Positions 31,501 through 46,527 of a DNA stretch of 64,000 nt are shown one piece after another. The notes beneath the pieces were generated by a model that ran no database searches, was not told the origin of the DNA, and worked only from the letters and a program-made list of their open reading frames with translations. The position numbers and the translations under genes were made by a program. This DNA comes from an uncultured virus (IMG/VR IMGVR_UViG_3300044699_000033) (Duplodnaviria; Heunggongvirae; Uroviricota; Caudoviricetes): the IMG/VR virus record IMGVR_UViG_3300044699_000033, one strand, 5' to 3'. How positions within the stretch are numbered: position 1 is the first letter of the stretch; the number at the start of each line of letters is the position of its first letter.

Positions 31501-33179
31501 TGTGTGGAAGATAAATATTGGTCAGGTGATAAATCATTTACATTATAGTTGGAATATAATACTGTTTGTTGGGTTTGTACATCATCATAAAATCTTGTAT
31601 TAGTTATTATTCCTCTTGCTACCACTGTACCATTTCCACCTTTCCTGTCTGACCTTGTAATTCTATACCCTACAATATCAGGACTATCAAATTTTGGAAT
31701 ATTTTTGAACCTAACTCCTAACACATTTACATACTGCTTTCCGTCTATAATAGAATACCTAGGAACTTTACATTCATCTGGCATCTTGTGTAGTCTTCTT
31801 GGTTTTCCTGCATCATCTCCAAACATAGCTACATTGTCAGGCCAAGGTTCTGTAGACTCAAAATAGCCCATAGCTCCATAGCCTAGCAGTCTTGTTCCAC
31901 ATGAAAATTCATTATTATAAGGAACCATCTTACCTGCTGTGTTCTCTACCTGCCACCTTACAATAGTTCCTGGAATTTCACACACATAGTCTTTGTCATA
32001 CTCATATACATCTGCTGATGACACAGGTGATAAGTCATCATCCTCTGCTATTCTCCCACCTATATTATATTTATCAGTAACCTCTCCTGTATTATATTCT
32101 CCTTGAATATAAAAATCATAATTCTCATCTCTATAATACCCAACATCTTCTCCGTCAAACTGGTAATAATCTGCAAGGACTTGCTTCACAACATATTCAG
32201 TTTCTATCTGCATAGCCTTCAGCTGATAGTTTTCTTCATCTCTTCCTACTAAATCTGCAATAATAAGATAGTTAGAATTTGAAGTAATAATACCTGCTGT
32301 ATTCCATGTATTTCTCTTAACAACAAGTTGAGAGAGTGGAATTTCTTCATATGTAGGATTAATAAAGTCAGTTACAGAGACACTCTTTATCTTTGTAGAA
32401 TAGGTTCCTATTTTCTTGGCAAGCTTAGTAACTCCTTTGGTGTTAGGGTCTATATAAGTTCCCACTACTCCTAAAGTGAATTCATCGAATTCTGTATCAA
32501 GATTTGATAATGTTATTTCAAGAGAATTAGAATTTGTTTCTGAGAATAACATTCTTCTATTAGTTATTGAGAACCAGTCTGTAAATACCTGATTATCAAC
32601 TGAATAGGCTATCACTACAGAATATGAACCATTTGGCATGTTGCCAATATTGCCCTTCTTTACAGAGATACAAGGTTGGTCAATCTTCTTCCATAACAGA
32701 ATGTCATCACAACTTGTAAGGTTTGCAAGAGATTTTAATTCTACCCTTCTTACAGGATTAGCTTTATCTGTAAAAGTAACAACTGTTCCTTTATGAAAAT
32801 CCTTCTTAGCAACTCCATGAATAGGTTGATTAAACTGTGAGAAATTAAAACAAGGAAGGTTCTTAACTTTAGTGTATGTACAATCTTTAGGGTTGCCTAT
32901 GCCTATTTCTGAATCAGTCTCATCTCCAGAGAATACTAAAAAAGTACCATCTGGTAAATCAACATGTCCTAATATCTTGTAAGGTGCAGAAATGCAACTA
33001 AGATTAGAAGGTTCATTTCCAACAGTCCCTAAGTCTCCATCTTTTGAATTTCTAACAATATTTCTAGCATGAGAATACATCTCCTTAGAGTGGTAAGAAG
33101 AGTTCAAATCTGTTACAAGAGCAGCTTTTGAAGTTATATTAGTATCAACACTTGAAGTATTTTGCAAATTGTCAGCCAT
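28590..33179 (-). CDS. Tail stabilisation/muzzle protein (P22 gp10-like, crAss type)
   Basis: 1529 aa; N-terminal SHARNI...GNEPSN, C-terminal SWTLSY...SWHDWHPD; follows the tail tube gene. Confidence 0.8.
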   Translation of the reverse strand: MADNLQNTSSVDTNITSKAALVTDLNSSYHSKEMYSHARNIVRNSKDGDLGTVGNEPSNLSCISAPYKILGHVDLPDGTFLVFSGDETDSEIGIGNPKDCTYTKVKNLPCFNFSQFNQPIHGVAKKDFHKGTVVTFTDKANPVRRVELKSLANLTSCDDILLWKKIDQPCISVKKGNIGNMPNGSYSVVIAYSVDNQVFTDWFSITNRRMLFSETNSNSLEITLSNLDTEFDEFTLGVVGTYIDPNTKGVTKLAKKIGTYSTKIKSVSVTDFINPTYEEIPLSQLVVKRNTWNTAGIITSNSNYLIIADLVGRDEENYQLKAMQIETEYVVKQVLADYYQFDGEDVGYYRDENYDFYIQGEYNTGEVTDKYNIGGRIAEDDDLSPVSSADVYEYDKDYVCEIPGTIVRWQVENTAGKMVPYNNEFSCGTRLLGYGAMGYFESTEPWPDNVAMFGDDAGKPRRLHKMPDECKVPRYSIIDGKQYVNVLGVRFKNIPKFDSPDIVGYRITRSDRKGGNGTVVARGIITNTRFYDDVQTQQTVLYSNYNVNDLSPDQYLSSTQTSFKNGKEHNFTPLTGYYKDKFNFYSPHTSFEPKYSLGNELKIESEEIADITGSFEKVHNHPRQKLLNQFAFWLAAATGFIETTLVLLGKANMSGQTETEVTVPPVRKVSVGTKIEINSVDDLISLSPGQLTAMIINAIQALDGGGILAAANLIFTALKVLASLGLKAAYGTFKGIEQADQIFNVIYNFTGYTDYVYQYNSHALFTQSLCVADGNKRRRLISDPEYIPSDVVTINDKTFNNYFSEKSVFLELNKPITDPVTKDTSRNTISGFGMCEKPTDSITSKGSAFYATSKVTNPNQYGTVGSASPVSMHSCVIPFTQDIEESPVLFGGDCIIARVQIQKRKQFFSQHIANINYPDGTEYDYRLYNNIGYPRFWIDSTKYDFSQLLSGNVVNFTKFSRTTTSKHNLDCKGGDKKSISRIDDAYMYLASNCVMDFFVECDYNIHFREKTEHPFYYKNNTNLSQIFRSDRWEFPEEFQISRAYSDIYTTEISAIQQRDDFDPTDPIPISQPNSVIYSLPSFNLQQVDNWQYFLPANYFAFRESDFGSLTGIHKLDQDRLIFLFSKSSPYVSMGKDFLELEGSGRKVTIGDGGLFAQDPREMLPTDNNYGSCNSRWAFSNTHLGRFYPSEKQGRIINADSMEDIARAGLSFWCKNYMPIFLYKYFPSYPEVENPISGVGYYTIFDSFNETFYVTKRDFSPKPEYKADISYHDGSFYYKSTSILLRSQYFNDISWTLSYCPQDKGFVSWHDWHPDWVIQAENHFMTVKDNIIYKHNERYDSFCNFYGIDYPSEIEVVSSSGQQVHIPRSIEYLWEAYKYKNSGRDKFHVHHENFDRLVVSNTEQISPLLKLNYASDNVEDNLEYPKRDPSTAVTFNILFHKEENKYRINQFWDTVKDRGEFTRTEAHLFPTDESGYKNVVNPLAVDMNKPEEERKKFRHYFNKFRFTKTVSGSTKFLFKLLNVKKLVSIR

Positions 33180-34073: not shown

Positions 34074-34934
34074 TTATTGAAAATATTTGAACCAGTGATT
34101 ATACCAGCCAAGTTCCTTTCTTCTTTGTGATTTCACATACTCTCCATAGCCTTTATCAAGAGTGAAGTTGAAGGCATCCATCCAAGCTTGAGATTTCTCC
34201 TTTTCTGCAAGCTTCCTAAAGTATTCACCTTCTTCCCTGTTTATGTCTGAATTAAATATAGCATCTAGAATTATGTTATATTTAATAGTCCACTCATACC
34301 AAGGAGTTATGTTAGAATGGAATGGGAATGTAATATTACCCTCTTCATCCTTCATTGCCCCTAAATATATTAGGTAGAGTGTACCTGCTCTGAAAGGAGT
34401 ATGAATTTCTCCATCTTTTATTGTAATTGTATACTTTCCCTTCTTTTTAGTGTTAGGGCAAGCTACATGGCAGAACTTATTAGATTGACTATCTACGTCC
34501 AGTTGCACCCAAGAACCATAGTTATGAACAGTAGTTTGTGTTTGCCTCTTTATTACCACTCTGTAGTTGTCTACACAACCTAGAGATTCTCTGTCCAATC
34601 CTGCTTCATATACTACATCACTGTCAAAGTTGTTGTCAAATGGATTTACACCATAACTTACTATTGTATTAGTTGCCTGAAGTCCACAAATGTAATAAAG
34701 CTTCTCAAAGTCCATTGGTAGTTTTGCTACATTGTTAAATACAGGAATACCAATCTCCCTGATTTCTCTGATGGGAAGTCCAAGCTTATCATTACACCAT
34801 AAGACATGCTTAATTATTTCTCCATCATCTACCAGACCTTCAGCATTCATCTTTCTAAAAGAAGTCTTAACAATATCTGTAAGCTCACTGATAGGACGAT
34901 GTTGGAACAATTTATTATTTATAGTATTTTCCAT
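34074..34934 (-). CDS. Tail tubular/ring protein
   Basis: 286 aa; synteny between ring protein and muzzle genes; LIYLGAMKDEEG motif. Confidence 0.6.
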   Translation of the reverse strand: MENTINNKLFQHRPISELTDIVKTSFRKMNAEGLVDDGEIIKHVLWCNDKLGLPIREIREIGIPVFNNVAKLPMDFEKLYYICGLQATNTIVSYGVNPFDNNFDSDVVYEAGLDRESLGCVDNYRVVIKRQTQTTVHNYGSWVQLDVDSQSNKFCHVACPNTKKKGKYTITIKDGEIHTPFRAGTLYLIYLGAMKDEEGNITFPFHSNITPWYEWTIKYNIILDAIFNSDINREEGEYFRKLAEKEKSQAWMDAFNFTLDKGYGEYVKSQRRKELGWYNHWFKYFQ

Positions 34935-36297: not shown

Positions 36298-36567
36298 TTA
36301 TTCAGTTGCAGATGATGGTGGAACAGGCGTGACATTTTGTTGTATAAATGCCATAATTGGGTTAATTGTCTTCCAATCTAAGCCTTTAAGTTCACCTACT
36401 GCATTAAGGATGGCATTTATTGCCTTTTCTGAAATAAGGTACATTTTCTCCTGTGGTTGTGCAGGGGCTGTTGCTACTACTGGAGCTTTTGGTGCCCTTT
36501 TAGGAGCACCCTTCCCTGGTATATCCACTACTTTTGAGTCTGTTGTTGATTCTTCTGTTAATGACAT
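36298..36567 (-). CDS. Small hypothetical protein
   Basis: 89 aa with its own TATCTTTG promoter (36585-36592, TTTG 19 nt upstream) and terminator. Confidence 0.6.
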   Translation of the reverse strand: MSLTEESTTDSKVVDIPGKGAPKRAPKAPVVATAPAQPQEKMYLISEKAINAILNAVGELKGLDWKTINPIMAFIQQNVTPVPPSSATE

Positions 36568-36653
36568 AAAATATATATTTTTAACAAAGATATGAAATTT
36601 CCAGAATTATCCAAATCTTAAATGTTAAAGAAATGTTAAAGGATTATTAAAAG

Positions 36654-36736
36654 TGGGCAGAGAAGGGATTCGAACCTTCAAACTCTTAGGAGACCTGTTT
36701 TACAGACAGGGTGCTTTACCATTTGCATATCTACCC
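36654..36736 (-). tRNA. tRNA-Tyr: tRNA-Tyr(GTA)
   Basis: Anticodon arm CCTGT-CTGTAAA-ACAGG, long variable arm, TTCGAAT T-loop. Confidence 0.93.
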
Positions 36737-36740
36737 AAGT

Positions 36741-36831
36741 TGCGGAGAGTAAGGGAATTCAACCCTTATCCCAAATTAATGGGACTCTGTTTAGCAAACA
36801 GATGCAGCCAAGCAATATCTGCCTACTCTCC
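36741..36831 (-). tRNA. tRNA-Ser: tRNA-Ser(GCT)
   Basis: GGAGAGT acceptor, TCTGT-TTGCTAA-ACAGA, long variable arm, G73. Confidence 0.9.
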
Positions 36832-36836
36832 AATAG

Positions 36837-36918
36837 AGGAAGGTGAAGTAATCGAAACCTGATGTTTTACCACCGCCTGGGGTTCAAAGCCAGTTACCCA
36901 CCTTGAGTGCCACCTTCC
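36837..36918 (-). tRNA. tRNA-Ser: tRNA-Ser(TGA), 8/4-type cloverleaf
   Basis: Acceptor GGAAGGTG/CACCTTCC (8 bp), T-stem AGGT/ACTT (4 bp), loop TTTGAAC, variable arm. Confidence 0.8.
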
Positions 36919-36923
36919 TTATG

Positions 36924-36998
36924 TCCTTCTAGCTGGATTCGAACCTGCACTTTTACAAGGTTTAAGCTTGTCATGTCTGCCAATTGCATCATAGAAGG
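36924..36998 (-). tRNA. tRNA-Leu: tRNA-Leu(TAA), short variable region
   Basis: ACAAG-CTTAAAC-CTTGT; Leu-type D-arm ATGCAATTGGCAGACAT; A73. Confidence 0.88.
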
Positions 36999-37002
36999 AT
37001 AG

Positions 37003-37076
37003 TGACCCTGAAGAGACTCGAACTCTTAAATAACTGATCCTAAGTCAGTTGTGTCTACCAATTGCACCACAGGGCC
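37003..37076 (-). tRNA. tRNA-Leu: tRNA-Leu(TAG), short variable region
   Basis: ACTGA-CTTAGGA-TCAGT; Leu-type D-arm; A73. Confidence 0.9.
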
Positions 37077-37079
37077 AAT

Positions 37080-37109
37080 AAAAAACCCCCAACTTTTCAG
37101 CCGGGGGTT
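37080..37109 (-). terminator. Attenuator terminator A, upstream of the Leu/Ser/Tyr tRNAs
   Basis: AACCCCCGGCT-GAAA-AGTTGGGGGTT-TTTT ending 3 nt before tRNA-Leu(TAG). Confidence 0.88.
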
Positions 37110-37131
37110 ATTAAGTGTACGCAGGTCTCCG

Positions 37132-37209
37132 TTATTTTGTACATACCATTCCCAGCTTGTTCTTTGACAAGAGTGATAAACTGGAATAATATGATAGAAT
37201 GAATATCAT
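37132..37209 (-). CDS. Leader peptide A (MIFILSYYSSLSLLSKNKLGMVCTK)
   Basis: 25-codon ORF with 11 consecutive Leu/Ser/Tyr codons, overlapping the antiterminator strand. Confidence 0.8.
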   Translation of the reverse strand: MIFILSYYSSLSLLSKNKLGMVCTK

Positions 37210-37211
37210 TT

Positions 37212-37364
37212 TTAAATATGACCTGTTGCTGTCAATACTGCAAGCACTATAGTTGCTACTATAGCCACAATATTAACTGCTGTTTTTGTTGTTTGGCTTG
37301 CTGCAACATTCCCATTAAAGAGATACATTACAACAAATAAAGCTGCTAATAAGAACCAATTCAT
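37212..37364 (-). CDS. 50-aa two-helix membrane protein
   Basis: MNWFLLAALFVVMYLF...VAIVATIVLAVLTATGHI; ATG 3 nt after TATATTTG (37368-37375). Confidence 0.6.
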   Translation of the reverse strand: MNWFLLAALFVVMYLFNGNVAASQTTKTAVNIVAIVATIVLAVLTATGHI

Positions 37365-37406
37365 AGGCAAATATACAACCTTTTAACGAAGACTCTAAAT
37401 TTTATT

Positions 37407-37868
37407 TTAGAATTCTTCAGTTGTAGTTTCTGTAGTTGATTCTGTTGTTGTTGCTTCAGTTGTAGTCTCAGTTGTAGACTCTGTTGTAGTCTCAGTAGTT
37501 GTTTCAGTTGTAGTATCACCTACAGTAGAAGCAACATCTGCTGATGTAGCAGCAACTTGATCCTTGATTGCTTGAACTTGATCAATAACAGCTTGAATTT
37601 GTTCAGGAGATGCACTTTCTGCAAGTTGAGCCTGAAGAGCTGCAATTGTTTCATTAAGCCCTTGAACAACAGCAGCATTTGTATCAAGCAATGCTTGAAT
37701 TTGCTCTTGTTCTGCATCTACAGTTTCTTGTAGACCTGCAACTTGTGATTTAAGTTCTGCAACTTGTTCGTTAAGAATTTCGACTTTTCCCATAATTTGA
37801 TTGAGTTTTTTAAGTATTAAAGATTCGTTTTCAAAATGATTGTGAATATGTATGTGTAATCCTGTCAT
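37407..37868 (-). CDS. Coiled-coil protein with Thr/Glu-rich tail
   Basis: Heptad-like Q/A/L pattern; C-terminal TTTE repeats. Confidence 0.65.
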   Translation of the reverse strand: MTGLHIHIHNHFENESLILKKLNQIMGKVEILNEQVAELKSQVAGLQETVDAEQEQIQALLDTNAAVVQGLNETIAALQAQLAESASPEQIQAVIDQVQAIKDQVAATSADVASTVGDTTTETTTETTTESTTETTTEATTTESTTETTTEEF

Positions 37869-37958
37869 AATTTTAATATTACACTTTGTTTGTGTGGTAA
37901 ATATACGAATAATAATTGAATCTACAAAATTTATTTGTCTATTTTTTGTAAAAAATTT

Positions 37959-38114
37959 TTAGAATATAGCTTTTGCTATAAAATAGAGAAGTAAAACAAT
38001 TGCAGAAATGATAAGAATATGCTTTAATCTAAGTTTGTAAGGAGCGTAATAATGTACTCCCAATAAAATGATAAAACACAATACGAATACCAGTATAAAG
38101 TAAATTAAGGACAT
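37959..38114 (-). CDS. Small membrane protein
   Basis: MSLIYFILVFVLCFIILLG...ILIISAIVLLLYFIAKAIF, two hydrophobic helices. Confidence 0.45.
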   Translation of the reverse strand: MSLIYFILVFVLCFIILLGVHYYAPYKLRLKHILIISAIVLLLYFIAKAIF

Positions 38115-38233
38115 GAATAACTGCAATATAGTCCTTTTGTGCGAAACTATTATTATATAATTACGACTAAATGTTATATAATTCCCACATATAATACTAC
38201 AATTACTATGCCAAAGATATAACACATTACTAA

Positions 38234-38308
38234 TGTGGAGGATACCAGCATCGAACTGGTGACTCTAGCTTGCAAAGCTAGTGTTTTTGCCATCTATACT
38301 AATCCCCC
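38234..38308 (-). tRNA. tRNA-Ala: tRNA-Ala(TGC)
   Basis: G3:U70; CTAGC-TTTGCAA-GCTAG. Confidence 0.92.
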
Positions 38309-38373
38309 AGAAGGGCATTGATTGAGGGCTCAATGCTCAAAGCCTTTTGTAACATCCCTGCCTAAGGCAGAGA

Positions 38374-38535
38374 CTAAACTCCTTTAAATGTTTGACCACT
38401 TAAAGAGAAATACTCTCTTGCAGAAATTTTGTTTCTTACAAAGAGAGAGATTGCATTTCCTTTGTTAGCAGATTTCTTCTTATTTCTGCCACATTTCCTG
38501 CAACCTTTTACTTTTTGTCCATCTCTTTTAGCCAT
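38374..38535 (-). CDS. 53-aa basic protein with CxxC
   Basis: MAKRDGQKVKGCRKCGRNKKK...; A-rich upstream context. Confidence 0.5.
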   Translation of the reverse strand: MAKRDGQKVKGCRKCGRNKKKSANKGNAISLFVRNKISAREYFSLSGQTFKGV

Positions 38536-38614
38536 TTTCTGTGTTGGCTAGCTGTTTTGTCAGCTAGTTACCACGTTAGGCTATTTCTTGCTTTTCTCAT
38601 TTTGCTTGTTTTAG

Positions 38615-38687
38615 TGCAGCTAATAGGATCTGAGCCTATGACCTCTTGCTTATCAGACAAGTGCTCTACCAACTGAGCTATAGCTGC
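38615..38687 (-). tRNA. tRNA-Ile: tRNA-Ile(GAT)
   Basis: CTTGT-CTGATAA-GCAAG; canonical D-arm. Confidence 0.9.
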
Positions 38688-38691
38688 AATT

Positions 38692-38808
38692 TTAACAGGA
38701 AGTTTTATATTTTCTAATTCTTCCTCTCCTTCTTCTAATACAGATAAGACATGCACCATTGCATTTAATAATCTTTCTTATACTTTTTATTCTTTCCACC
38801 CTTCTCAT
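38692..38808 (-). CDS. 38-aa Arg/Lys/Cys-rich mini-protein
   Basis: MRRVERIKSIRKIIKCNGACLICIRRRRGRIRKYKTSC fills the spacer between two tRNAs. Confidence 0.35.
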   Translation of the reverse strand: MRRVERIKSIRKIIKCNGACLICIRRRRGRIRKYKTSC

Positions 38809-38882
38809 GTTGACTTGCCCAGAGTCGAACTGGGACAGCTCATGTTATGAGCATGATTCTCTACCAATTAAGATACAAGTCA
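38808..38882 (-). tRNA. tRNA-CAT (elongator Met or lysidine-Ile2)
   Basis: TCATG-CTCATAA-CATGA; identity not resolvable by eye. Confidence 0.85.
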
Positions 38883-38885
38883 ATT

Positions 38886-38960
38886 TGGCCGAGAGTGGGA
38901 GGTTCGAACTCCTACCTTTTGCGTGACAAGCAAATATGCAGCCATTACACCACACCCTCG
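38886..38960 (-). tRNA. tRNA-Asp: tRNA-Asp(GTC), folds best as 8/4
   Basis: TTTGC-TTGTCAC-GCAAA; G73 and encoded CCA. Confidence 0.88.
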
Positions 38961-38964
38961 GTAT

Positions 38965-39192
38965 TTACATATATCTTATAAGATGCTTTGCTTCCATTTC
39001 AGGAAGAAAATCTGCATCTCCCATATCTGAAACAGGTACATAAAATGTAATTACCATTACACCACTTCCTGGAGTACCTATGGTAGCCTCATAGTAAGCT
39101 GTACCTTTCCTGATATATAAGAACTTTGCCTTTGGTTTCTCTTTATAAAGAGCCTTTTTGATAATTTCAGTACTTAAAATGCTATTATCCAT
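38965..39192 (-). CDS. Hypothetical protein
   Basis: 75-aa ORF between tRNAs (IKKALYKEKPKA...VPVSDMGDADF). Confidence 0.65.
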   Translation of the reverse strand: MDNSILSTEIIKKALYKEKPKAKFLYIRKGTAYYEATIGTPGSGVMVITFYVPVSDMGDADFLPEMEAKHLIRYM

Positions 39193-39206
39193 ATTGTTGA
39201 TTTTAG

Positions 39207-39278
39207 TACTCTATGAGAGGATCGAACTCTCTTCAACAGTTTGAAGGACTGCTATCCTGGCCATTAGACGAATAGAGC
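39207..39278 (-). tRNA. tRNA-Glu: tRNA-Glu(TTC)
   Basis: GCAGT-CCTTCAA-ACTGT; Glu-type D-arm GTCTAATGGCCAGGAT. Confidence 0.85.
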
Positions 39279-39311
39279 ATTTCCACTTTAACCTGGTCCA
39301 GTGGGAAGGTA

Positions 39312-39385
39312 GGAGCACCAGTGGAGTAACAATCTCCATACTCCAGTTTGGAAGACTGGTGTGTATTCATCAACACTTCTGATGC
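39312..39385 (-). tRNA. tRNA-Gly: tRNA-Gly(TCC)
   Basis: CCAGT-CTTCCAA-ACTGG; U73; atypical T-loop ATTGTTA. Confidence 0.82.
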
Positions 39386-39544
39386 ATGGAGGGAGACTGG
39401 TTATTTATACCATTAATTAGGGACTCTCCCAGACCCTTCTTGCTCTTTGTTACTCAGGGAGAGGCGGTTCATAGTATTACCCACCTTCAAGAGATTACTT
39501 TATTCCCTCAGGTTCTTTACCCTCCCCGTGAGTAACTTAATTAT

Positions 39545-40032
39545 TTATATATCTCTGGGTGCTACAAACATGGTCAGCAGCCTTTGTTGTAATAACATGA
39601 TCTCCTTTGAATTCTGCATTATAGTTTAAACCCTTTCATCCATCCATTTACAGCAGATACTAGTTTATTACTTGCCCACTTTGGGATTTGATTATAGTCA
39701 AACTCTAAAGCTTCAAAGGATATAGGTATCTCAGAATCAATTAGTTGTGCTGCTTCTAATGTCCTTTCAGCTTCTCCAAAGAGTCTTGTGTACATGTCTC
39801 TTATGATTGGAAGCTGCTCTCTGTAATAGACAAAGTGTGCTCCTCTGTGTCCATACCTATATGCTACTACAGTAACATACACTGTATTCCTCTTTCTCCT
39901 ACCTTTTCCTCTTTCATCCTGAGAGTCAGTACCAACATAGATTTTCATATTAGGCCACTTTTGTAATTGCTCTAAAGTGTGCTCAACTATGTTAACTCTT
40001 TCACCTTGTTGTGTTCTGAAGTACTTGTCCAT
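39545..40032 (-). CDS. RNase H-like YkuK (DUF458) family protein; C-terminal frameshift
   Basis: KIYVGTDSQ...YVTVVAYRYG.RGAH...RLFGEAERT...FDYN; the shifted frame continues ...FKGDHVITTKAADH. Confidence 0.8.
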
Positions 40033-40273
40033 TGGTTCTAATTAATCTATAATACCTACCTCTTCTTGTTTTCTTTATAATAATCTTTAATCTTCTAAGA
40101 ATTCTAGGAACATGGTGACCCATATAAATCCTCTCATATCCTACCTTCTTTTCAAAAGCTTCATCAATGAGTTCCATTCCTCCTATACCTGTTCTGACAA
40201 CAATCTGTCTTGCAGGAGGACAGTCACCACCCCAATATTCTATAATTGCTTTCTTTATAGTTTCTGTATCCAT
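40001..40273 (-). CDS. Hypothetical basic protein
   Basis: MDTETIKKAII...; ATG 4 nt after TATCTTTG (40278-40285). Confidence 0.55.
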   Translation of the reverse strand: MDTETIKKAIIEYWGGDCPPARQIVVRTGIGGMELIDEAFEKKVGYERIYMGHHVPRILRRLKIIIKKTRRGRYYRLIRTNGQVLQNTTR

Positions 40274-40313
40274 ATTACAAAGATAATAATCAAATTTCAA
40301 AGAACCAAATAAA

Positions 40314-40389
40314 TGTTGCAGGTGTTGGATTCGAACCAACGATCTCTAAGGTTATGAGCCTTGAAGGATGACCACTTCCCTAACCTGCA
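40314..40389 (-). tRNA. tRNA-Met: tRNA-Met(CAT), initiator-like
   Basis: AAGG-CTCATAA-CCTT; fMet-like D-arm GGAAGTGGTCATCC. Confidence 0.85.
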
Positions 40390-40393
40390 ATAT

Positions 40394-40468
40394 TGCTCCC
40401 CCTCAGAATTTTGAAATCTGGACCTCAACCTTAACAGGGTTTTGCTCTGCCCTCTGAGCTAAAGGGGA
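40394..40468 (-). tRNA. tRNA-Asn: tRNA-Asn(GTT)
   Basis: TCCCCT acceptor, AACC-CTGTTAA-GGTT, G73. Confidence 0.9.
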
Positions 40469-40476
40469 ATATTTAG

Positions 40477-40549
40477 CACACCTGAGAGGATTCGAACCTC
40501 TATCTTACAGTTTAGAAAACTGGGGCAATCTCCTTTATACTACAGGTGC
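40477..40549 (-). tRNA. tRNA-Arg: tRNA-Arg(TCT)
   Basis: CAGT-TTTCTAA-ACTG. Confidence 0.87.
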
Positions 40550-40553
40550 ATTC

Positions 40554-40628
40554 TGTAGAGCCACCCAAATTCGAATTGGGAACAAAGGTTTAGGAAACCT
40601 TTATTTTATCCTATTAAACTATGGCTCC
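40554..40628 (-). tRNA. tRNA-Arg: tRNA-Arg(CCT)
   Basis: AAGGT-TTCCTAA-ACCTT. Confidence 0.87.
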
Positions 40629-40631
40629 ATT

Positions 40632-40705
40632 TGTACAGGGTGAGAATTTTGAAATCTCGACTTCCACTTTGTAGGAGTGGCACTCTTCCTCTGAGTTAAC
40701 CCTGC
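40632..40705 (-). tRNA. tRNA-Val: tRNA-Val(TAC)
   Basis: CCACT-CCTACAA-AGTGG; A73. Confidence 0.88.
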
Positions 40706-40706
40706 A

Positions 40707-40877
40707 TCACTTTAAATTCTTCAATTGTATCATTAAAGCTGATATTTCACTTGTATACTTACTTACACTAATTTCAGCAGTATTAGATGTTTTCTGCTTT
40801 AAATTAGAATACATTTCATCCTCAAGGAACTTAATCCTGTCTATTAGTTTTTGTCTTTTCTTTTCTATCTTGCTCAT
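40707..40877 (-). CDS. Small basic helical protein
   Basis: MSKIEKKRQKLIDRIKFLEDEM...; fills the spacer between tRNAs. Confidence 0.6.
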   Translation of the reverse strand: MSKIEKKRQKLIDRIKFLEDEMYSNLKQKTSNTAEISVSKYTSEISALMIQLKNLK

Positions 40878-40888
40878 ATATTTGGTTT

Positions 40889-40962
40889 TGTGACCCCAGT
40901 GAGCCATGATCTCACAACCCCAGTTTAAGAGACTGGTACTCTGCCAATTGAGCTATGGAGTC
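40889..40962 (-). tRNA. tRNA-Lys: tRNA-Lys(CTT)
   Basis: CCAGT-CTCTTAA-ACTGG; atypical T-loop. Confidence 0.85.
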
Positions 40963-40965
40963 TAG

Positions 40966-41038
40966 TCCCCCTGAGAGGAGTCGAACCTCCTGTCTTCTGA
41001 TTAAAAGTCAGTAGCTTGTCCAAATAAGCTCCAAGGGG
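40966..41038 (-). tRNA. tRNA-Lys: tRNA-Lys(TTT)
   Basis: CTGA-CTTTTAA-TCAG; TTCGACT T-loop. Confidence 0.9.
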
Positions 41039-41042
41039 AAAT

Positions 41043-41072
41043 AAAAAACCCAGAGCTTTTGACTCTGGGCTT
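41043..41072 (-). terminator. Attenuator terminator B, upstream of the Lys...Ala tRNAs
   Basis: GCCCAGAG-TCAAAAG-CTCTGGGT-TTTTT, 4 nt before tRNA-Lys(TTT). Confidence 0.88.
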
Positions 41073-41107
41073 CTAATATTCTGTCTGTACTTTATATTAA
41101 TTCAATA

Positions 41108-41188
41108 TCAGACAATAGAAAACCCAGAGCCAAATTTGCCATTTGCCTCAATTCCTCTATTATCCACTATCATATATAAGTTGTACAT
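41108..41188 (-). CDS. Leader peptide B (MYNLYMIVDNRGIEANGKFGSGFSIV)
   Basis: 26-codon ORF; 13 consecutive codons match the amino acids of the downstream tRNA set; overlaps the antiterminator strand 41116-41131. Confidence 0.8.
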   Translation of the reverse strand: MYNLYMIVDNRGIEANGKFGSGFSIV

Positions 41189-41215
41189 TTTCTGCTGTTA
41201 TTAAATTTTAGAATA

Positions 41216-41247
41216 CAAATATACGGAATTACTTTGAACTTTCCAAA
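41216..41247 (-). promoter_or_regulatory. Bacteroidota promoter (TTTG-N20-TATATTTG) driving leader B and tRNA group B
   Basis: -7 element 41216-41223; -33 TTTG 41244-41247. Confidence 0.75.
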
Positions 41248-41534
41248 TTTATTTTTGGAACTTTCTTAATTAACCCTAATTTCTTCTTCATACTCTTAGT
41301 TTGGGGAGCAGCTTGCCTCTTTTGCAGGAGTTCAGCTTTGTCCTTTCTCTTTGTATGGTAATTTATTAATTCCCAATGAGTCTCATGATTAAGTTGGAAA
41401 ACCTTGTCAAAAAACTCTATTTTCTCTTTTTCCTTAATCTGGTCTAGCCTTTTCTTGTATAAATCTTTCCTTATTTGATTATATACCCTTGCTTTCATGG
41501 CAAGAGTTTTCAATGATATATTTATCTGTTTCAT
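41229..41534 (-). CDS. Basic helical hypothetical protein downstream of the PTH2-like gene
   Basis: MKQINISLKTLAMKARVYNQIRK... Confidence 0.55.
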   Translation of the reverse strand: MKQINISLKTLAMKARVYNQIRKDLYKKRLDQIKEKEKIEFFDKVFQLNHETHWELINYHTKRKDKAELLQKRQAAPQTKSMKKKLGLIKKVPKINLESSK

Positions 41535-41887
41535 TTTTATTAATTTTATTTTTGAATAAAAGTGGTATTTTAGATACCAATTTCTGTGTAAGTGGACTTG
41601 GTTCAATAGCTATTGCTGTTATTTCATTCCCAATGTCAGGTTCTCTAAAAGCTGTATAGGCTAATTGTAGCCTGTCACAGTTTTGCATTAGAAGCTTAAG
41701 TTGTTTTTCATTCTTAAGTTCTAAGAGAACAAGGTAATTGGAGTTTTTAAACCAAGGACCAGCTCTTCCAGGATGTTCAAAGATAAATTAATAGCAGCAT
41801 GGGCTGACTGCACTGCTTTGTACCCATCTGATAAGTCCTCTCTTGTGACTAATTATCAGCTTACTGTATTTCTTGTATCTACTTCAT
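41479..41887 (-). CDS. Peptidyl-tRNA hydrolase PTH2-like protein (frameshifted; TAG at codon 3)
   Basis: Reconstructed KLII-VTREDLSDGYKAVQSAHAAI...NYLVLL...FREPDIGNEITAIAIEP...IPLL, the phage PTH2-like signature. Confidence 0.75.
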
Positions 41888-41901
41888 AATGAATCTTTTA
41901 G

Positions 41902-41974
41902 AGATGCTGATGGGGCTCAACCCACAACTGGGAATTTTAGAGATTGCCTGCTCTATCAATTGAGCTACAGCACC
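41902..41974 (-). tRNA. Amber suppressor tRNA (anticodon CTA)
   Basis: GGTGCTG/CAGCATC acceptor, GCTC/GAGC D-stem, loop CT-CTA-AA. One anticodon-stem mismatch and a 6-nt T-loop (possible errors). Own TACATTTG promoter at 41981-41988. Confidence 0.72.
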
Positions 41975-42009
41975 ATAGCACAAATGTAGGCAAATTCAGG
42001 AGATTTACC

Positions 42010-42781
42010 AATATTATTTTTAAGAAGTTTAATTGTCCAGAATACAGCAGCCAAATTGGGTCTGTAATATAACTGAAAGGGAGGTAAAAATGCCCCTTAT
42101 TTCCCAGTTTGTTCCCCAAGAGTTTCTGATTTTACAATTGCTGTCTTTCATCATCATACCCTACACAGCATACAGCATGAACTCCTAAGCATTTTCTCAT
42201 CAGGTGTAGCAATGGCACTATACCTGTGTTGTAACCTGTGTGCTTTCAAAGCTTGAATACACTGCAAAACCAAAGACAATGTAAAGTCCTGTAGCTAGAC
42301 AAGTTTTTAGCTCATTAATGTTAGTATTATCCAGTCTCTCATAAACATCTATTTTATGAGGTATGGCTGTTGTGTAAGCACCAGTAGGTGGTTTTTGCCT
42401 GAATTTGATTTATTTTATAAGGCCAAATTGTCTCTGGACAAGCACCCCAGTTATAATACTTTTAATACCATCTCTTAACATGGCACCTGAATCATAGGGA
42501 ACAGTACCTTCTATAACCTTTCATTGTTAATATATAAAGAGCCTAGAGGGTTGTATGATGGGAAGTCCTTCTTTGAATTTTGTGAAATCAAGAGAAAGAG
42601 AGATAGCATTTCCTGTGCAGGGAGGCCTAAGCTTCTCTTGGTCATATGTATATGTTACCTGTCTAGATAAGTCTACCCTGTGAGGTAGTTCAATTTGTGC
42701 AGGTGAGAAATTTTAAGTCTCTAACAGTCAGGAGTATCTGGCTTACCAGGTGTATTTATATCTATGTTTTAATTGTGACAT
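42010..42781 (-). CDS. Papain-like C1A cysteine peptidase (heavily frameshifted)
   Basis: Pieces read YDQ...CTGNAIS, PSRLFIY, DSGAMLRDGIKS, WPY, HAVCCVGYDD, RNSWG..WG.KGHFYLP. Confidence 0.8.
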
Positions 42782-42797
42782 ACCAAGTTTATTTTTG

Positions 42798-42868
42798 AGC
42801 AGGTAAAGAGATTTGAACTCTTAAAAGCAGTTTCGTGGACTGCTGGTTAATCCATTGCCTATACCTGC
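42798..42868 (-). tRNA. tRNA-Arg: tRNA-Arg(ACG)
   Basis: GCAGT-CCACGAA-ACTGC; GCAGGTA/TACCTGC acceptor. Confidence 0.8.
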
Positions 42869-42869
42869 A

Positions 42870-43200
42870 TTATTTGAAATAATTAAGAGCAAACATTGCA
42901 AGGTTAAAATAATGGTAATTGCTGCTACCCACCCTGCCTGCCTGTTCTGCTTATCTATAAGAAGCTGGACTTTAGCATTAACTTCCTTTATTTCAGACTC
43001 ATATACTTCCCTAGGAAATAAACTAGCCTGCATAAGTCTTAAACTTTCTGCCTCATGATTAAGTATTTCTAAACGTCTTTCATACTCTTTGCCTGAATCT
43101 CAAGAGCTTTTTCTTGGTATTTATCCTTTTCTGTTAAGATTTCCTTTGCATGGTTAATTTGAGCTTGCAAGAATTCCTTTGTATATTGTATTTCATCCAT
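42870..43200 (-). CDS. Coiled-coil protein with C-terminal TM helix (frameshifted)
   Basis: MDEIQYT...EKRLEILNHEAESLRLMQASLFPREVYE...GWVAAITIILTL. Confidence 0.45.
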
Positions 43201-43248
43201 CTTCTATAATATAAGGAAATTAACGGAAATCTCCAAATCTTTCTGTTT

Positions 43249-43321
43249 TGGGTGTAAGGACGGTATTGAGCCGACTTCCATGCTCCACAGGCATGTGCTT
43301 CACCTTAAAGCTTCAAACACC
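43249..43321 (-). tRNA. tRNA-His: tRNA-His(GTG)
   Basis: G-1/C73; CATGC-CTGTGGA-GCATG. Confidence 0.82.
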
Positions 43322-43358
43322 ATTTGCGTAGAATAAGTGCCTTATTCTCCTTAAAAAG

Positions 43359-43427
43359 ATCCCCTGACTGGACTTGAACAATAACTTTAGATCCAAATTC
43401 TAAAATGTTACCATACACTACAGAGGA
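43359..43427 (-). tRNA. tRNA-Gln: tRNA-Gln(TTG), T-arm degraded (likely sequence error)
   Basis: T1-A72 acceptor TCCTCTG/CAGGGGA; TTAGA-ATTTGGA-TCTAA. Confidence 0.7.
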
Positions 43428-43430
43428 ATG

Positions 43431-43503
43431 TGCACCCATGTAAAGATTCGAACTCTAACTAACTGGTTTGGAATCAGTTGTGCTACCATTACACTACACG
43501 GGT
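43431..43503 (-). tRNA. tRNA-Trp: tRNA-Trp(CCA)
   Basis: ACTG-ATTCCAAAC-CAGT; G73. Confidence 0.87.
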
Positions 43504-43545
43504 ATATATCTTATATCCATTTAGAGACTTTTAAAGTCCCCACAG

Positions 43546-43617
43546 TGGTACAGGGCAGATTTGAACTGCCAACACCCTGAGCTTCATTCAGGTGCTCTAC
43601 AATGGAGCTACTGTACC
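43546..43617 (-). tRNA. tRNA-Phe: tRNA-Phe(GAA)
   Basis: CCTGA-ATGAAGC-TCAGG. Confidence 0.87.
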
Positions 43618-43707
43618 ATTTGTCACTGTACACTCTTTGAGGGTTGTACTCCTGTTGGAGACCCGTTATGACATTAAATATAAAAGACGGGTCAAGCTTC
43701 TATATCT

Positions 43708-43780
43708 TGGAGTCACCTAGAGGATTTGAACCCCTGTAGGAGCTTTTGCAGAGCTCTGCCTACCACTCGGCCAAGGTGAC
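43708..43780 (-). tRNA. tRNA-Cys: tRNA-Cys(GCA)
   Basis: GAGCT-CTGCAAA-AGCTC; U73 and CCA. Confidence 0.92.
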
Positions 43781-43850
43781 AATAGTCAGGGAAGTACCAC
43801 CGATGGCTTTGAGTACACTTTCAGTACCTGAAATTAGCTTCCCTTTTAAG

Positions 43851-43925
43851 AGCCTCCTGTCGGGCTCAAACCAACTAATTCCTCATTACAAGTGAGGTAC
43901 TCCTTATCTTCAGAGAATAGGAGGC
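43851..43925 (-). tRNA. tRNA-Thr: tRNA-Thr(TGT)
   Basis: GCC acceptor start; CCTCA-CTTGTAA-TGAGG. Confidence 0.85.
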
Positions 43926-44014
43926 ATTGGGCTGGTGTAATGGCTGCCCTGCCAATTGACTTCTCGACTACACCTGTGAGTCAATAGACCTATTATATTG
44001 CTCAGAGAATCACC

Positions 44015-44089
44015 TGTATAGTAGACCGGGGTCGAACCTGCATTCCACTTGCTCCCAGGCAAGGGACTTACCAATTAGTCAACTACTAT
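44015..44089 (-). tRNA. Probable tRNA-Pro (NGG; anticodon loop reads only 6 nt, CTGGGA)
   Basis: Full cloverleaf; CTTGC-CTGGGA-GCAAG, one base probably missing. Confidence 0.65.
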
Positions 44090-44094
44090 AAATG

Positions 44095-44126
44095 AAAAAC
44101 CTTCATCTTGAGATCATGAAGGGCTT
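44095..44126 (-). terminator. Attenuator terminator C, upstream of the Pro...Arg(ACG) tRNAs
   Basis: CCTTCAT-GATCTCAAG-ATGAAGG-TTTTT, 5 nt before the first tRNA. Confidence 0.78.
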
Positions 44127-44149
44127 TAAAGAATCCGTGTTAAATATTT

Positions 44150-44231
44150 TTAACAGACATAGCAAACCCTTCCTGTTTCTGGTTGAAACTGGGGACAAAA
44201 CGTATGCCATGTATGACGTAATTTTGTTCAT
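44150..44231 (-). CDS. Leader peptide C (MNKLRHTWHTFCPQFQPETGRVCYVC; requires removal of one A near codon 3)
   Basis: 82 nt from ATG to TAA (81+1); 13 consecutive codons CGT...CCA match the downstream tRNA set. Confidence 0.7.
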
Positions 44232-44236
44232 TTTTG

Positions 44237-44323
44237 TTATTTTTTAGGCTTTGGTCTTGGTCTAGTGGGTCTACCACCACCACTTCCACAACCACAGCCA
44301 ACTATTGCTGTGTTTTTTACCAT
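44237..44323 (-). CDS. 28-aa peptide MVKNTAIVGCGCGSGGGRPTRPRPKPKK
   Basis: Clean ATG-TAA ORF between the promoter and leader C. Confidence 0.55.
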   Translation of the reverse strand: MVKNTAIVGCGCGSGGGRPTRPRPKPKK

Positions 44324-44339
44324 GTGTTTAATTATAACA

Positions 44340-44370
44340 CAAATATACTAAATTTTTTTCAACTTCCAAA
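44340..44370 (-). promoter_or_regulatory. Bacteroidota promoter (TTTG-N19-TATATTTG) driving leader C and tRNA group C
   Basis: -7 element 44340-44347; -33 TTTG 44367-44370; lies just after a terminator. Confidence 0.78.
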
Positions 44371-44384
44371 TTTATTTTTTAAAG

Positions 44385-44409
44385 AAAAAAGGGATGTAGA
44401 AACATCCCT
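44385..44409 (-). terminator. Intrinsic terminator ending the fibre gene operon
   Basis: AGGGATGT-TTCT-ACATCCCT-TTTTT. Confidence 0.85.
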
Positions 44410-44459
44410 AGAAGTTACCCTTGGAAACCAACAACCAAGGACTTTATTAAACTAAAGAT

Positions 44460-45423
44460 TTATGTAAATGTTCCTGTTATATACCAAGTTGTACTTGCTG
44501 TTTTAGTTATAGTTGCAACAGCATCTGCTGGAATTGTTCTACTACCTGTTCCTGTAGTACCATCTCCTCTTTGTAAAGTATCAGAGTTTATTGCAAGTGT
44601 AATAGCACCTGAACCTGTGGCATTAACAATTGTTATTCTTGTTCCCACTGCATATGCCACCGAAGCATTAGCAGGAATTGTCCATGTTGTAGCTGTAGAG
44701 GAATGTAAAAGTATATTATTAGCATCACCTATAACAAATGTGTAAGTTTGTCCGGAGATGTAACTATTGATGCAGAAGAGTACCCTGAATAACCTGTTAT
44801 TCCAGAATATGCACTATAGCCTGAAGTTGATGAGTATCCGCTGTAACCTGTATAGCCACTGAAGCCTGACCAGGTCCACTGTAGCCAGAGTACCCTGTGT
44901 AGCCTGAGTAACCAGACTTGCCTGAGTAACCAGAGAAACCACTGGTACTAGAATATCCGCTGAAACCAGATGTAGAAGAGTAACCAGAATATCCTGTATA
45001 ACCTGAGTAACCAGATTTTCCAGAATATCCGGAATAACCAGTATAACCTGAAAATCCACTACCTGAATAACCACTGAAACCTGAACCTGAATAACCAGAA
45101 TAACCAGATTGACCTGTGTAGCCGCTAAAGCCTGAAGTAGATGAATACCCACTAAAGCCTGAAGTGGATGAATAACCTGAAAAACCACTTAAACCTAAAC
45201 CAGAATATCCTGAGAATCCAGAGCCTGAATATCCGCTATATCCTGACCTTCCACTATAACCTGAGTATCCAGATATTGAGGAGTAACCACTAAAACCTGA
45301 AGAATAATAGCCTGAGTAGCCACTAGTGCCTCCTCCAGCAATCTTTCTTACAGCTTTTTTAACTTCTGTTTTCTTGAAAAAAGCAGCTATAGTATCCCCT
45401 AAAAATTCTCTTAATACACTCAT
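44460..45423 (-). CDS. SGY-repeat fibre protein with C-terminal beta-sandwich module (frameshifted)
   Basis: MSVLREFLG..., SG(Y/F) repeats, then TYTFVIGDA...WTIPANASVAYAVGTRITIV...WYITGTFT. Confidence 0.65.
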
Positions 45424-45427
45424 GATG

Positions 45428-46527
45428 TTATATTTGTGGGTGAGAAACTGCACCATCAAAGTTAACCACTACGGTTTTTGATGTTGCACCTATGAATGCT
45501 GATTGCAATTCTAAAAGTATGTTATTTGCAGACTTTCTGATAATATATCCATATTGTTGAGTGATTTGGTCTCCAGCCTGAGGAGCATCTATATAGTTGA
45601 TTCCTTTAAGGTCTGCTGTTCCTATTTGCTCTGCAAGGGTAAGACATGTTGTTGGAATATTACCCATTGTTATTGTAAACTTCCTATTTGCAGTAGAATA
45701 AGCTCCAAATGCTATTGTATATGTTATAGAGCCTCTGAATTCAAGAGTACCATCAAATCTATATCTATATTGAGGATTACCTGCTGTATAAACAACATTT
45801 GCGTTTCCTGTTGCAACTAGTGTTATATTTCTCCATGTAGCATCAAAACAAGACCTTGCTATTGAATAGATGGATTTGTTGAAACCACATAAGGGTCAGC
45901 AGTAGTACCTATTCCTGTAACTGTTACTCCTGTGCCATTTACTATCTTAGTTTCTGAACCATCTGGTGCTGTATAAGCTGTTTTAAACTTACCATCTGCA
46001 CCAAGAGTTAGCTGATTTCCTGAATCTGAAGAGATAAGTGTAGAAGGAACAAGCTGAAGTCTTAGCACTTCATCTGCTCCTGGATTGACAATTGACTTAA
46101 CTATGTAAGTTCCACCATCAATCTTACCATATAGATATCCTGTAGTAGTATCATTTTCTGACACCTTTGCATTAATATCAATAGGTACCCCACCTTCTAC
46201 AGCATTGATTACAAACTTCTTATCACATCCTGAGCCTGTTTGTGTGAAGGAAATATTAAGACCTTCTTGAAAGACATCCCAAGGATATCTAGGAGGACAT
46301 GTATCATTAGCATCTATGACTATTTTACCTTGAGATGCAAGAATTTCCTCATACTTTGAACAAATCTGAGCAATTACCTGATCTCCAGTCATATCATTTG
46401 TAACCCCTAGTGCTTCACACACTCCAGGCAATGTTATGCAAGGGAATGTTGTGGGATTCAAACATCCACAGTTGTCATAAGGACTACATGGGCTGCATGT
46501 TGTTGTATCGCAAGTTGAATAAGACAT
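45428..46527 (-). CDS. Cys-rich N-terminal tail/head fibre protein (frameshift near 45859)
   Basis: ORF 45859-46527 continues in another frame (...ATWRNITL...QYRYRFDGTLEFRG...) into 45428-45667. Confidence 0.55.

Follow-up and report, generated by a model that had tools for sequence, protein, structure and literature searches.

The 64,000-nucleotide (nt) stretch of DNA analysed here (the window) comes from an uncultured virus, IMG/VR record IMGVR_UViG_3300044699_000033, and carries three arrays of tRNA genes, each of them preceded by an intrinsic terminator and, further upstream, by a short open reading frame (ORF) that we call its leader. The codons at the centre of each leader name all the amino acids of the array behind it, and no others. 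This layout suggests that the phage probably makes a given tRNA set when ribosomes read the codons of that set slowly, by a type of control that is known for amino-acid synthesis genes. In our judgement the three units, A, B and C, are likely to be ribosome-mediated leader-peptide transcription attenuators placed before tRNA arrays and opened by slow decoding of the codons that each array serves.

Each tRNA array follows a leader ORF that names its amino acids

The tRNA genes of the window are without exception on the minus strand, as are the features of the three units given below. ARAGORN reported 22 tRNA genes, 21 of them sense tRNAs, at its default settings and, at a relaxed threshold (-ps90) at which errors are possible in both directions, 26 sense tRNAs plus one tRNA with a CTA anticodon between positions 36653 and 44089; matches to the Rfam tRNA model backed 24 of these 27 relaxed calls. 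By position, the sense tRNAs form the three groups that the first-pass annotation had described. Group A (36653..37076, called by ARAGORN) consists of Leu-TAG, Leu-TAA, Ser-TGA, Ser-GCT and Tyr. Group B (38235..41038, ARAGORN and Rfam) holds 13 tRNAs with ORFs interspersed, in the order, from 41038 to 38235, Lys-TTT, Lys-CTT, Val, Arg-CCT, Arg-TCT, Asn, Met, Gly, Glu, Asp, Met, Ile and Ala. Group C (42797..44089, ARAGORN and Rfam) comprises Pro, Thr, Cys, Phe, Trp, Gln, His and Arg-ACG, with small ORFs between them; its tRNA-Pro has, in the window, an anticodon loop that is short by one base. Taken together the three groups serve exactly 20 amino acids, Arg being present in both B and C. The division also follows the first base of the codon: each of the ten group B amino acids has codons beginning with A or G, and those of groups A and C begin with T or C, apart from Thr (ACN, group C) and Ser-GCT (AGY, group A). 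Group A corresponds to the three tRNA types with a long variable arm (Leu, Ser and Tyr).

Leader A (37132..37209) is an ORF of 25 codons with an ATG start, identical in a contig from one of the soil-metagenome runs used for comparison (run X3), and its codon run (37165..37197) is made up of 11 codons for Leu, Ser and Tyr exclusively (3/3 amino acids). Leader B (41108..41188), with 26 codons and an ATG start, contains a run of 13 codons (41135..41173) that covers Met, Ile, Val, Asp, Asn, Arg, Gly, Glu, Ala and Lys (10/10). In leader C (44150..44231) an ATG at 44231 is followed by a run of four A residues (44222-44225) and then by the frame of the codon run (44180..44218), whose 13 codons cover Arg, His, Thr, Trp, Phe, Cys, Pro and Gln (8/8) and which ends at a stop codon at 44150-44152. 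Each run thus draws exclusively on the amino acids of its own array and includes all of them (3, 10 and 8), and the 11–13 consecutive own-group codons attributed to each leader by the first-pass annotation are found as runs of 11, 13 and 13. Scored against the other two amino-acid sets, the same leaders gave runs of 1-3 codons.

We compared these runs with the six-frame translation of the whole 64 kb. Leader A holds the longest Leu/Ser/Tyr run of the window, and leader C the longest run of group C amino acids (13 codons, the runner-up having 9). For the group B set length alone is not rare, as 16 runs of at least 13 codons occur, and leader B is the sole one that holds 10/10 amino acids. A permutation test of codon runs against group membership had been proposed as a check: when the amino-acid labels were permuted among groups of the same sizes, 0/1,000,000 permutations reached the observed run lengths. 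The match extends to the level of codons. Every run codon of the window (37/37) can be read by an anticodon of the group that it precedes, and there is no codon (0) for which another group would be required. The run of group A probes both Leu and both Ser isoacceptors, and Arg is spelled AGA in leader B, which precedes Arg-TCT and Arg-CCT, and CGT in leader C, which precedes Arg-ACG.

Terminators, promoters and alternative RNA structures of the three units

The terminator hairpin with its U-run was located at 37078..37109 in unit A (stem 37084-37109, -18.2 kcal/mol), at 41041..41071 in unit B (stem 41047-41071, -14.9 kcal/mol) and at 44093..44122 in unit C (stem 44100-44122, -7.0 kcal/mol, weak in the sequence as given). 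Counted from the end of the stem, the first tRNA follows after 8 nt in A, 9 nt in B and 11 nt in C, a gap too short to hold a promoter; the 3-5 nt originally claimed hold if the count begins at the end of the U-run.

The Bacteroidota-type promoter, whose consensus we take to be TTTG at -33 and TAnnTTTG at -7, is matched at 12 sites of the window, where 3.9 would be expected, and 0/100 shuffled sequences contained as many. One match precedes unit C (44340..44370; TTTG, 19 nt, TAnnTTTG) and another precedes unit B (41216..41247); unit A has a promoter-like site (37370..37399) that is a near-match, with TTTA instead of TTTG at the -33 box. The motif of unit B is directly before the leader. In the other two units a further small ORF intervenes between promoter and leader, namely a hydrophobic one of ~50 codons in A (37212..37370) and a Gly/Cys-rich one of 28 codons in C (44237..44323). 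A Bacteroidota promoter for each unit, as first proposed, is therefore found as such in B, and in A and C with the reservations that it stands ahead of another ORF and, in A, departs from the consensus.

Folding predictions gave the three mutually exclusive pairings expected of an attenuator, in which region 1 corresponds to the codon run, region 2 to the 3′ part of the leader, and regions 3 and 4 to the two arms of the terminator. Region 2, the antiterminator strand, lies at 37144..37158 in unit A and at 44167..44173 in unit C, where it pairs with the 5′ arm of the terminator; in unit B its core is at 41121..41131 and the full antiterminator helix runs through the stop codon of the leader. 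The full-length RNA of unit B folded into a 1:2 hairpin, formed by the run and the 3′ end of the leader, plus the 3:4 terminator (-47.8 kcal/mol, z-score -6.0). When it was cut before the 3′ arm of the terminator, a long 2:3 antiterminator helix appeared (-33.2 kcal/mol, z-score -3.3). Units A and C showed the same three pairings with weaker statistics (z-score about -2 for C), and for A and B the lowest-energy structure of the complete leader joins the codon run to region 2. Positions 36400-44500, scanned against Rfam with permissive settings, gave the tRNA matches and five weak matches to other families, at the level expected by chance, and no T-box.

Units of the same build are conserved in related phages

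Relatives were found via a 222-amino-acid protein encoded next to the tRNA region, which was searched for in IMG/VR and metagenome contigs, and with a DNA pattern of leader B. The pattern matched 33 loci, of which 6 have a real leader unit (4 on contigs already known, plus the new loci L036 and L044); the other 27/33 were chance matches within unrelated ORFs and were set aside. A 137-amino-acid ORF inside array B and a 286-amino-acid ORF (34074-34934), when used to look for relatives, found none. Leader–terminator–array units recur in 14 related uncultured phage loci, with the arrays in the order seen in the window except in L036 and L044 (see below), which was the outcome that the first-pass annotation had asked to see upstream of tRNA arrays in related phages. 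These relatives are few and mutually related and the unit counts are not independent, and it is four gains or losses of tRNAs that carry the argument from co-variation given below.

The window and the 14 loci contain 31 distinct leader peptides of 15-31 codons each. In 30 of them the run for the amino acids of the leader's own class is strictly the longest, the exception being a Cys-only unit. The order of residues inside the runs varies among lineages and the membership of the set is kept. Over the 34 units of window and relatives, 331/338 run codons were readable by own-group tRNAs, with the proviso that in this labelling some strict matches were over-labelled as extended wobble. The 7 unreadable codons are TCN Ser codons in three loci, in two of which a Ser-TGA gene was found at a lower threshold. 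The split of Arg by codon family, also part of the initial description, is kept in all relatives whose runs contain Arg, with AGA in every B leader and CGT or CGC in every C leader.

Leader composition followed tRNA content in four cases. The C array of L036 and L044 is without tRNA-Cys and its C leader is without a Cys codon, and all other C leaders have 3-6 of them. In L044, a 93%-complete record, Lys is missing from the tRNA genes and from leader B alike; in its sister L036, two Lys tRNAs go together with a codon for Lys in that leader. In L006, array B is without Arg-TCT and array C without Arg-ACG, and neither run contains Arg. Finally, in L005, L009 and L056 tRNA-Cys stands alone behind the unit, and the leaders have 5 Cys codons and have lost Arg, His, Trp and Phe. 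The expectation that leader codons would co-vary with tRNA content is accordingly borne out in part, as these cases have to be read together with the exceptions provided by L001, L002, L006, L007 and L045 (see below).

The order of the units is C-B-A in the window and B-A-C in the lineage of L036 and L044, so that each unit behaves as a module. These two loci are also the most distant carriers, and the Bacteroidota promoter motif is absent before their leader B (at 5900-6000 in each). Missing motif and changed order together suggest that this lineage infects another host group and that units have moved as modules. In relatives, leaders A and C start 4-7 nt after the -7 box and would thus be nearly leaderless messages. 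A Gly/Cys-rich ORF similar to that of the window occurs before unit C in L001-L003 and L007 (e.g. L001:11210-11260; L003:11230-11280); its position is between promoter and leader in the window and ahead of the promoter in the relatives. In several relatives, ORFs for HNH endonucleases are inserted between the terminator of the putative attenuator and the first tRNA (L001:11400-11950; L002:11400-11950, 13290-13436 and 16820-17320; L007:11480-11950), where read-through would co-express them with the tRNAs.

Alternative pairings of the leaders covary

ORF–terminator pairs were collected by rule, and the best partner of the 5′ arm of the terminator was scored as a z-score against shuffled leaders. 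This partner lay at leader nt 47-93, always after the run, with z-scores of -3 to -6 in most units. Control pairs, made of ordinary-gene fragments and the terminator behind them, gave +0.6 to -2.1, and 11/13 were at or above -1.2. The layout is compact: in 29 units the median distances were 6 nt from the end of the run to region 2, 17 nt from the end of region 2 to the end of the ORF and 25 nt from there to the terminator, and the end of the terminator stem was 8-14 nt (median 9) from the tRNA.

For unit B, compensatory changes were analysed in an alignment of 11 sequences (window plus 10 relatives). In the 2:3 antiterminator helix 89.1% of the 110 cells were paired and 8/10 pairs had changed on both sides; 0/500 shuffles scored as high, and controls in which the strands were slid gave 14-60%. 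The terminator of unit B had 84.6% of 130 cells paired, with compensatory changes in 4/12 pairs. The core of the A antiterminator showed such changes in 3/5 pairs. RNAalifold, unprompted, predicted the 2:3 helix for B and the core of that helix for A, and in the C units (12 sequences) it found a conserved helix between the run and the 3′ end of the leader. Pairing of the 3′ half of the leader with the 5′ strand of the terminator, which the first-pass annotation had proposed, is hence upheld by folding in A, B and C and by compensatory changes in B.

A ribosome-dependent switch is predicted

Every structural element of a trp/his/thr-type attenuator is present in all three units and conserved in relatives, which supports the layout put forward at the outset. 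At the level of sequence analysis, the anatomy of the units, the statistical uniqueness of their runs, the alternative RNA structures, their conservation and a partial co-variation with tRNA content are all documented by the results above. From these we infer that the leaders are translated, that there is coupling, in which direction the switch operates and what its physiological trigger is.

The switch would operate as follows. Polymerase would start at the Bacteroidota-type promoter and transcribe the leader of 25-26 codons, which a trailing ribosome would translate. If the 11-13 test codons were read fast, the ribosome would cover region 2, or would leave and let regions 1 and 2 pair; in either case the 3:4 terminator would form and polymerase would halt at the U-run, 8-11 nt short of the first tRNA. 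A leader that is not translated would likewise allow 3:4 to form and lead to termination. If charged tRNA for any of the test codons were scarce, the ribosome would stall on region 1, regions 2 and 3 would pair, the terminator would not form and polymerase would enter the array. Since the test codons are the codons read by the array's own tRNAs, the product would relieve the stall, and as the regulated genes themselves read the run, the circuit would constitute a direct negative feedback on decoding capacity. This feedback would be resolved into three codon classes that jointly cover the 20 amino acids.

A stronger version, which we put forward with some reserve and would not call probable, is that the units form a complete modular decoding monitor in which each amino acid, and with Arg each family of codons, is probed in one of the three leaders and a shortage turns on exactly the block of tRNAs that cures it. 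If so, the monitor would replace host tRNAs lost to shut-off, to a mismatch in codon usage or to a tRNA-cleaving defence, at no cost for tRNAs that the phage does not need. Its modules would be portable, their order differing between lineages, and they would amount to a principle of phage tRNA control that is general and has not been described before.

Observations that weigh against the proposed attenuators, and the reading frame of leader C

A number of observations weigh against the interpretation of the units as attenuators. Concerning RNA structure, the truncated fold of unit A in the window was no better than shuffles (z-score -0.13), and six antiterminators of C units were weak (z-score +0.1 to -1.9). 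Not every terminator that immediately precedes a tRNA has a leader: the tRNA-Arg-TCT of L006 (16880-16997) stands alone, 9 nt past the terminator of an ordinary gene and with no codon-matched leader, so that this arrangement alone does not identify an attenuator. Leaders A and C of the window are the second ORFs of their transcripts, starting 2 and 5 nt, respectively, past the stop codon of the preceding ORF. As for codons, leader B contains neither AAG nor AGG, to which Lys-CTT and Arg-CCT are strictly cognate.

Array B presents a further difficulty, as it contains an internal match to the promoter motif (40278..40309, after the first seven tRNAs) and interspersed ORFs, so that not every tRNA depends on the attenuator alone. 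The internal motif precedes two ORFs, one of them RNaseH-like (PF04308, 39619-40032), and the last six tRNAs; for this part of the group, transcription may also take place without passing attenuator B. The original proposal that a tRNA subset is transcribed only when ribosomes stall is for this reason, and on account of leaky terminators, too strong.

In relatives, the match between leader and array is at times incomplete. L001 is without the Val, Arg-TCT and Asn tRNAs and yet has the same leader as L002. The C leaders of L007 and L045 are without Arg despite the presence of Arg-ACG. Trp codons in L001, L002 and L006 and a Tyr codon in L006 have no detected matching tRNA; at relaxed thresholds, too, no tRNA-Trp was found in L001, L002 and L006 and no tRNA-Tyr in L006. 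For an extra Rfam tRNA match in L007, no anticodon was found.

The last point concerns the start of leader C. The claim of an ORF of 25-26 codons in each unit is true of A (25) and B (26), but in the window as given the frame of the C run opens after a TGA and is without an ATG, GTG or TTG. The four A residues at 44222-44225 lie between the ATG at 44231 and the run, and the two are out of register by one base. One contig of run X3 (151 nt, depth 4.3, with no other difference) is without one base at 44222, which yields an in-frame leader C of 26 codons, and an in-frame ATG is present in the C leaders of all relatives. The repair of leader C consists of this single low-depth 151-nt contig and the in-frame ATG of the relatives, and counts among the points that call for caution.

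Alignment of DNA contigs from four soil-metagenome runs on the window revealed nine sites with 1-nt indels (42745, 42856, 43277, 43378, 43413, 43761, 44057, 44099 and 44222), of which 6/9 are common to two or three metagenome runs and several are inside tRNA genes. The site at 44057 falls in the anticodon loop of the odd tRNA-Pro. That at 44099 falls in the 3′ arm of terminator C, where contigs of runs X1 and X3 have one extra base. The window sequence thus most likely carries small indel errors or variants, which would account for weak tRNA scores and for broken ORFs around 41600-42700.

Alternative explanations

The alternative that survives best keeps the attenuator but changes its natural signal, which would be amino-acid starvation or a general slowdown of translation in a dying host, the arrays being a regulon of starvation or late infection. 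Leader-peptide attenuators such as those of trp, his, thr and ilv sense charged tRNA, and the lack of any amino acid coded in the run would open them. Such feedback would nevertheless be futile, because more tRNA does not relieve amino-acid starvation. Furthermore, the AGA/CGY split of Arg, kept in all relatives, fits a match at the level of isoacceptors better than one at the level of amino acids, and the leaders track gains and losses of tRNAs. We therefore regard this explanation as unlikely, while giving it more weight than those that follow.

The switch could also sense whether the leader is translated at all, that is, coupling or ribosome availability, and the composition of the run would then be inherited baggage. 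A translated leader need only overlap an antiterminator strand to be able to report on coupling, and the leaders are homologous within each class, so that shared descent explains part of their likeness. Against this explanation, residue order within the runs differs among relatives while set membership is kept, and composition shifts with tRNA content in four cases; the permutations, moreover, exclude that three runs should match three arrays by chance. We consider a mere coupling sensor improbable.

Still less credit is due to the idea that the short ORFs encode functional small peptides, for instance a metal-binding mini-protein in the case of the Cys-rich leader C, with plain terminators behind them and with tRNAs transcribed by leak-through or from unrecognised promoters. 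The C leaders of most relatives do contain several Cys residues in CxxC-like spacing, and leaders A and C of the window come after other small ORFs. Yet the window has not kept the Cys pattern, nor is it present in the L036/L044 lineage, which has no tRNA-Cys; merely 8-14 nt separate terminator and tRNA; and the antiterminator, for which a plain terminator has no need, covaries. Lastly, we attach hardly any probability to a ribosome-free mechanism in which the codon runs act as RNA and the anticodons pair with the triplets in a T-box-like manner to shift the balance of terminator and antiterminator, as although the runs are by construction complementary to the anticodons of the array tRNAs, neither a T-box nor another known RNA family matched the region, the relatives have kept start codons, stop codons and an ORF length of 15-31 codons, the match is confined to a single reading frame and thirteen adjacent triplets cannot each hold a tRNA.

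Relation to known attenuators and to phage tRNA arrays

Leader-peptide transcription attenuators control amino-acid biosynthesis operons, as exemplified by trpL, hisL, leuL and pheL and by the multivalent thrL and ilvL. With these the phage units share a short leader, a cluster of regulatory codons, the exclusive 1:2, 2:3 and 3:4 pairings, a terminator before the genes and a leader whose 3′ part is the antiterminator strand. They differ in that the regulated genes are tRNA genes, so that the product would be the very thing that the sensor measures. A second difference is that each leader names 3, 10 or 8 amino acids, mostly once or twice each, whereas the known ones repeat one to three. Moreover, the three units partition the 20 amino acids, are borne by a phage and, in relatives, would give nearly leaderless transcripts.

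The pheST operon of Escherichia coli, with its pheM leader, is an attenuator of phenylalanyl-tRNA synthetase. It resembles the phage units as a case of leader-peptide attenuation acting on a gene of the translation apparatus and not of biosynthesis, but it controls a synthetase instead of tRNA genes and senses a single amino acid. No Phe-rich leader was found at the E. coli tRNA-Phe gene pheV, which has only a promoter directly upstream and no leader ORF. T-box riboswitches, in turn, also read the state of a tRNA by codon–anticodon pairing and set a terminator against an antiterminator; unlike the units described here they use no ribosome, one specifier codon and a conserved structured RNA, of which Rfam detected no match in the region.

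Why phages carry tRNA genes is an old debate in which codon supply, extension of host range and escape from tRNA-cleaving defences have been put forward, and the arrays of T4, T5 and mycobacteriophages are viewed as codon supply or as counter-defence against tRNA-cleaving host systems. The window has in common with them a large phage-borne set, here for all 20 amino acids. Prior accounts address the function of such tRNAs and not the control of their transcription. To our knowledge, this would be the first case of leader-peptide attenuation controlling tRNA genes. In line with the initial statement that no described attenuator of tRNA arrays was known, full-text literature searches turned up leader-peptide attenuators of amino-acid operons, resistance genes and similar targets and, in what they retrieved (PMC3082878 among it), none before tRNA genes.

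The leaders would spell out what the phage measures before making a tRNA set, namely the decoding speed of the codons that those tRNAs read. As the leaders state the measured codons, the question of what phage tRNAs are for becomes directly testable. The runs would also provide an independent functional read-out of the codons served by each phage tRNA, as with AGA versus CGY for Arg, and, if the proposed mechanism is true, a natural multi-codon sensor that covers 20 amino acids.

Genomic context of the tRNA region

The window belongs, as judged from predicted major capsid and muzzle proteins of Crassvirus type, to a crAss-like (Crassvirales-like) phage: the Pfam model Crass_capsid matched positions 54092-55786 with 32.6 bits (cut-off 27), and crAss_MUZ matched 28590-33179 with 48.2 bits. 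None of 50,697 phage records matched the capsid protein, and megablast of the whole region against the same records returned just a 45-nt tRNA-Asn stretch in Bacillus phages; with no relative of region or capsid in that collection, no cultured relative is at hand. Parts of the window occur in soil metagenomes.

Within the arrays, a PHROGs search of the ORFs gave nothing informative. The tRNA with the CTA anticodon, which is of the amber-suppressor type, is located at 41901-41974 on the minus strand, between array C and promoter B and outside the groups coded in the leaders; in the relative L054 such a tRNA is found behind array B. If TAG is read as Gln, just a few ORFs of the window become longer. 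Directly upstream of the tRNA region lie genes for a collagen-repeat protein and for the conserved 222-amino-acid protein (44797-45459 and 45859-46527, both on the minus strand), the latter with an invariant Cys-rich N-terminal motif.

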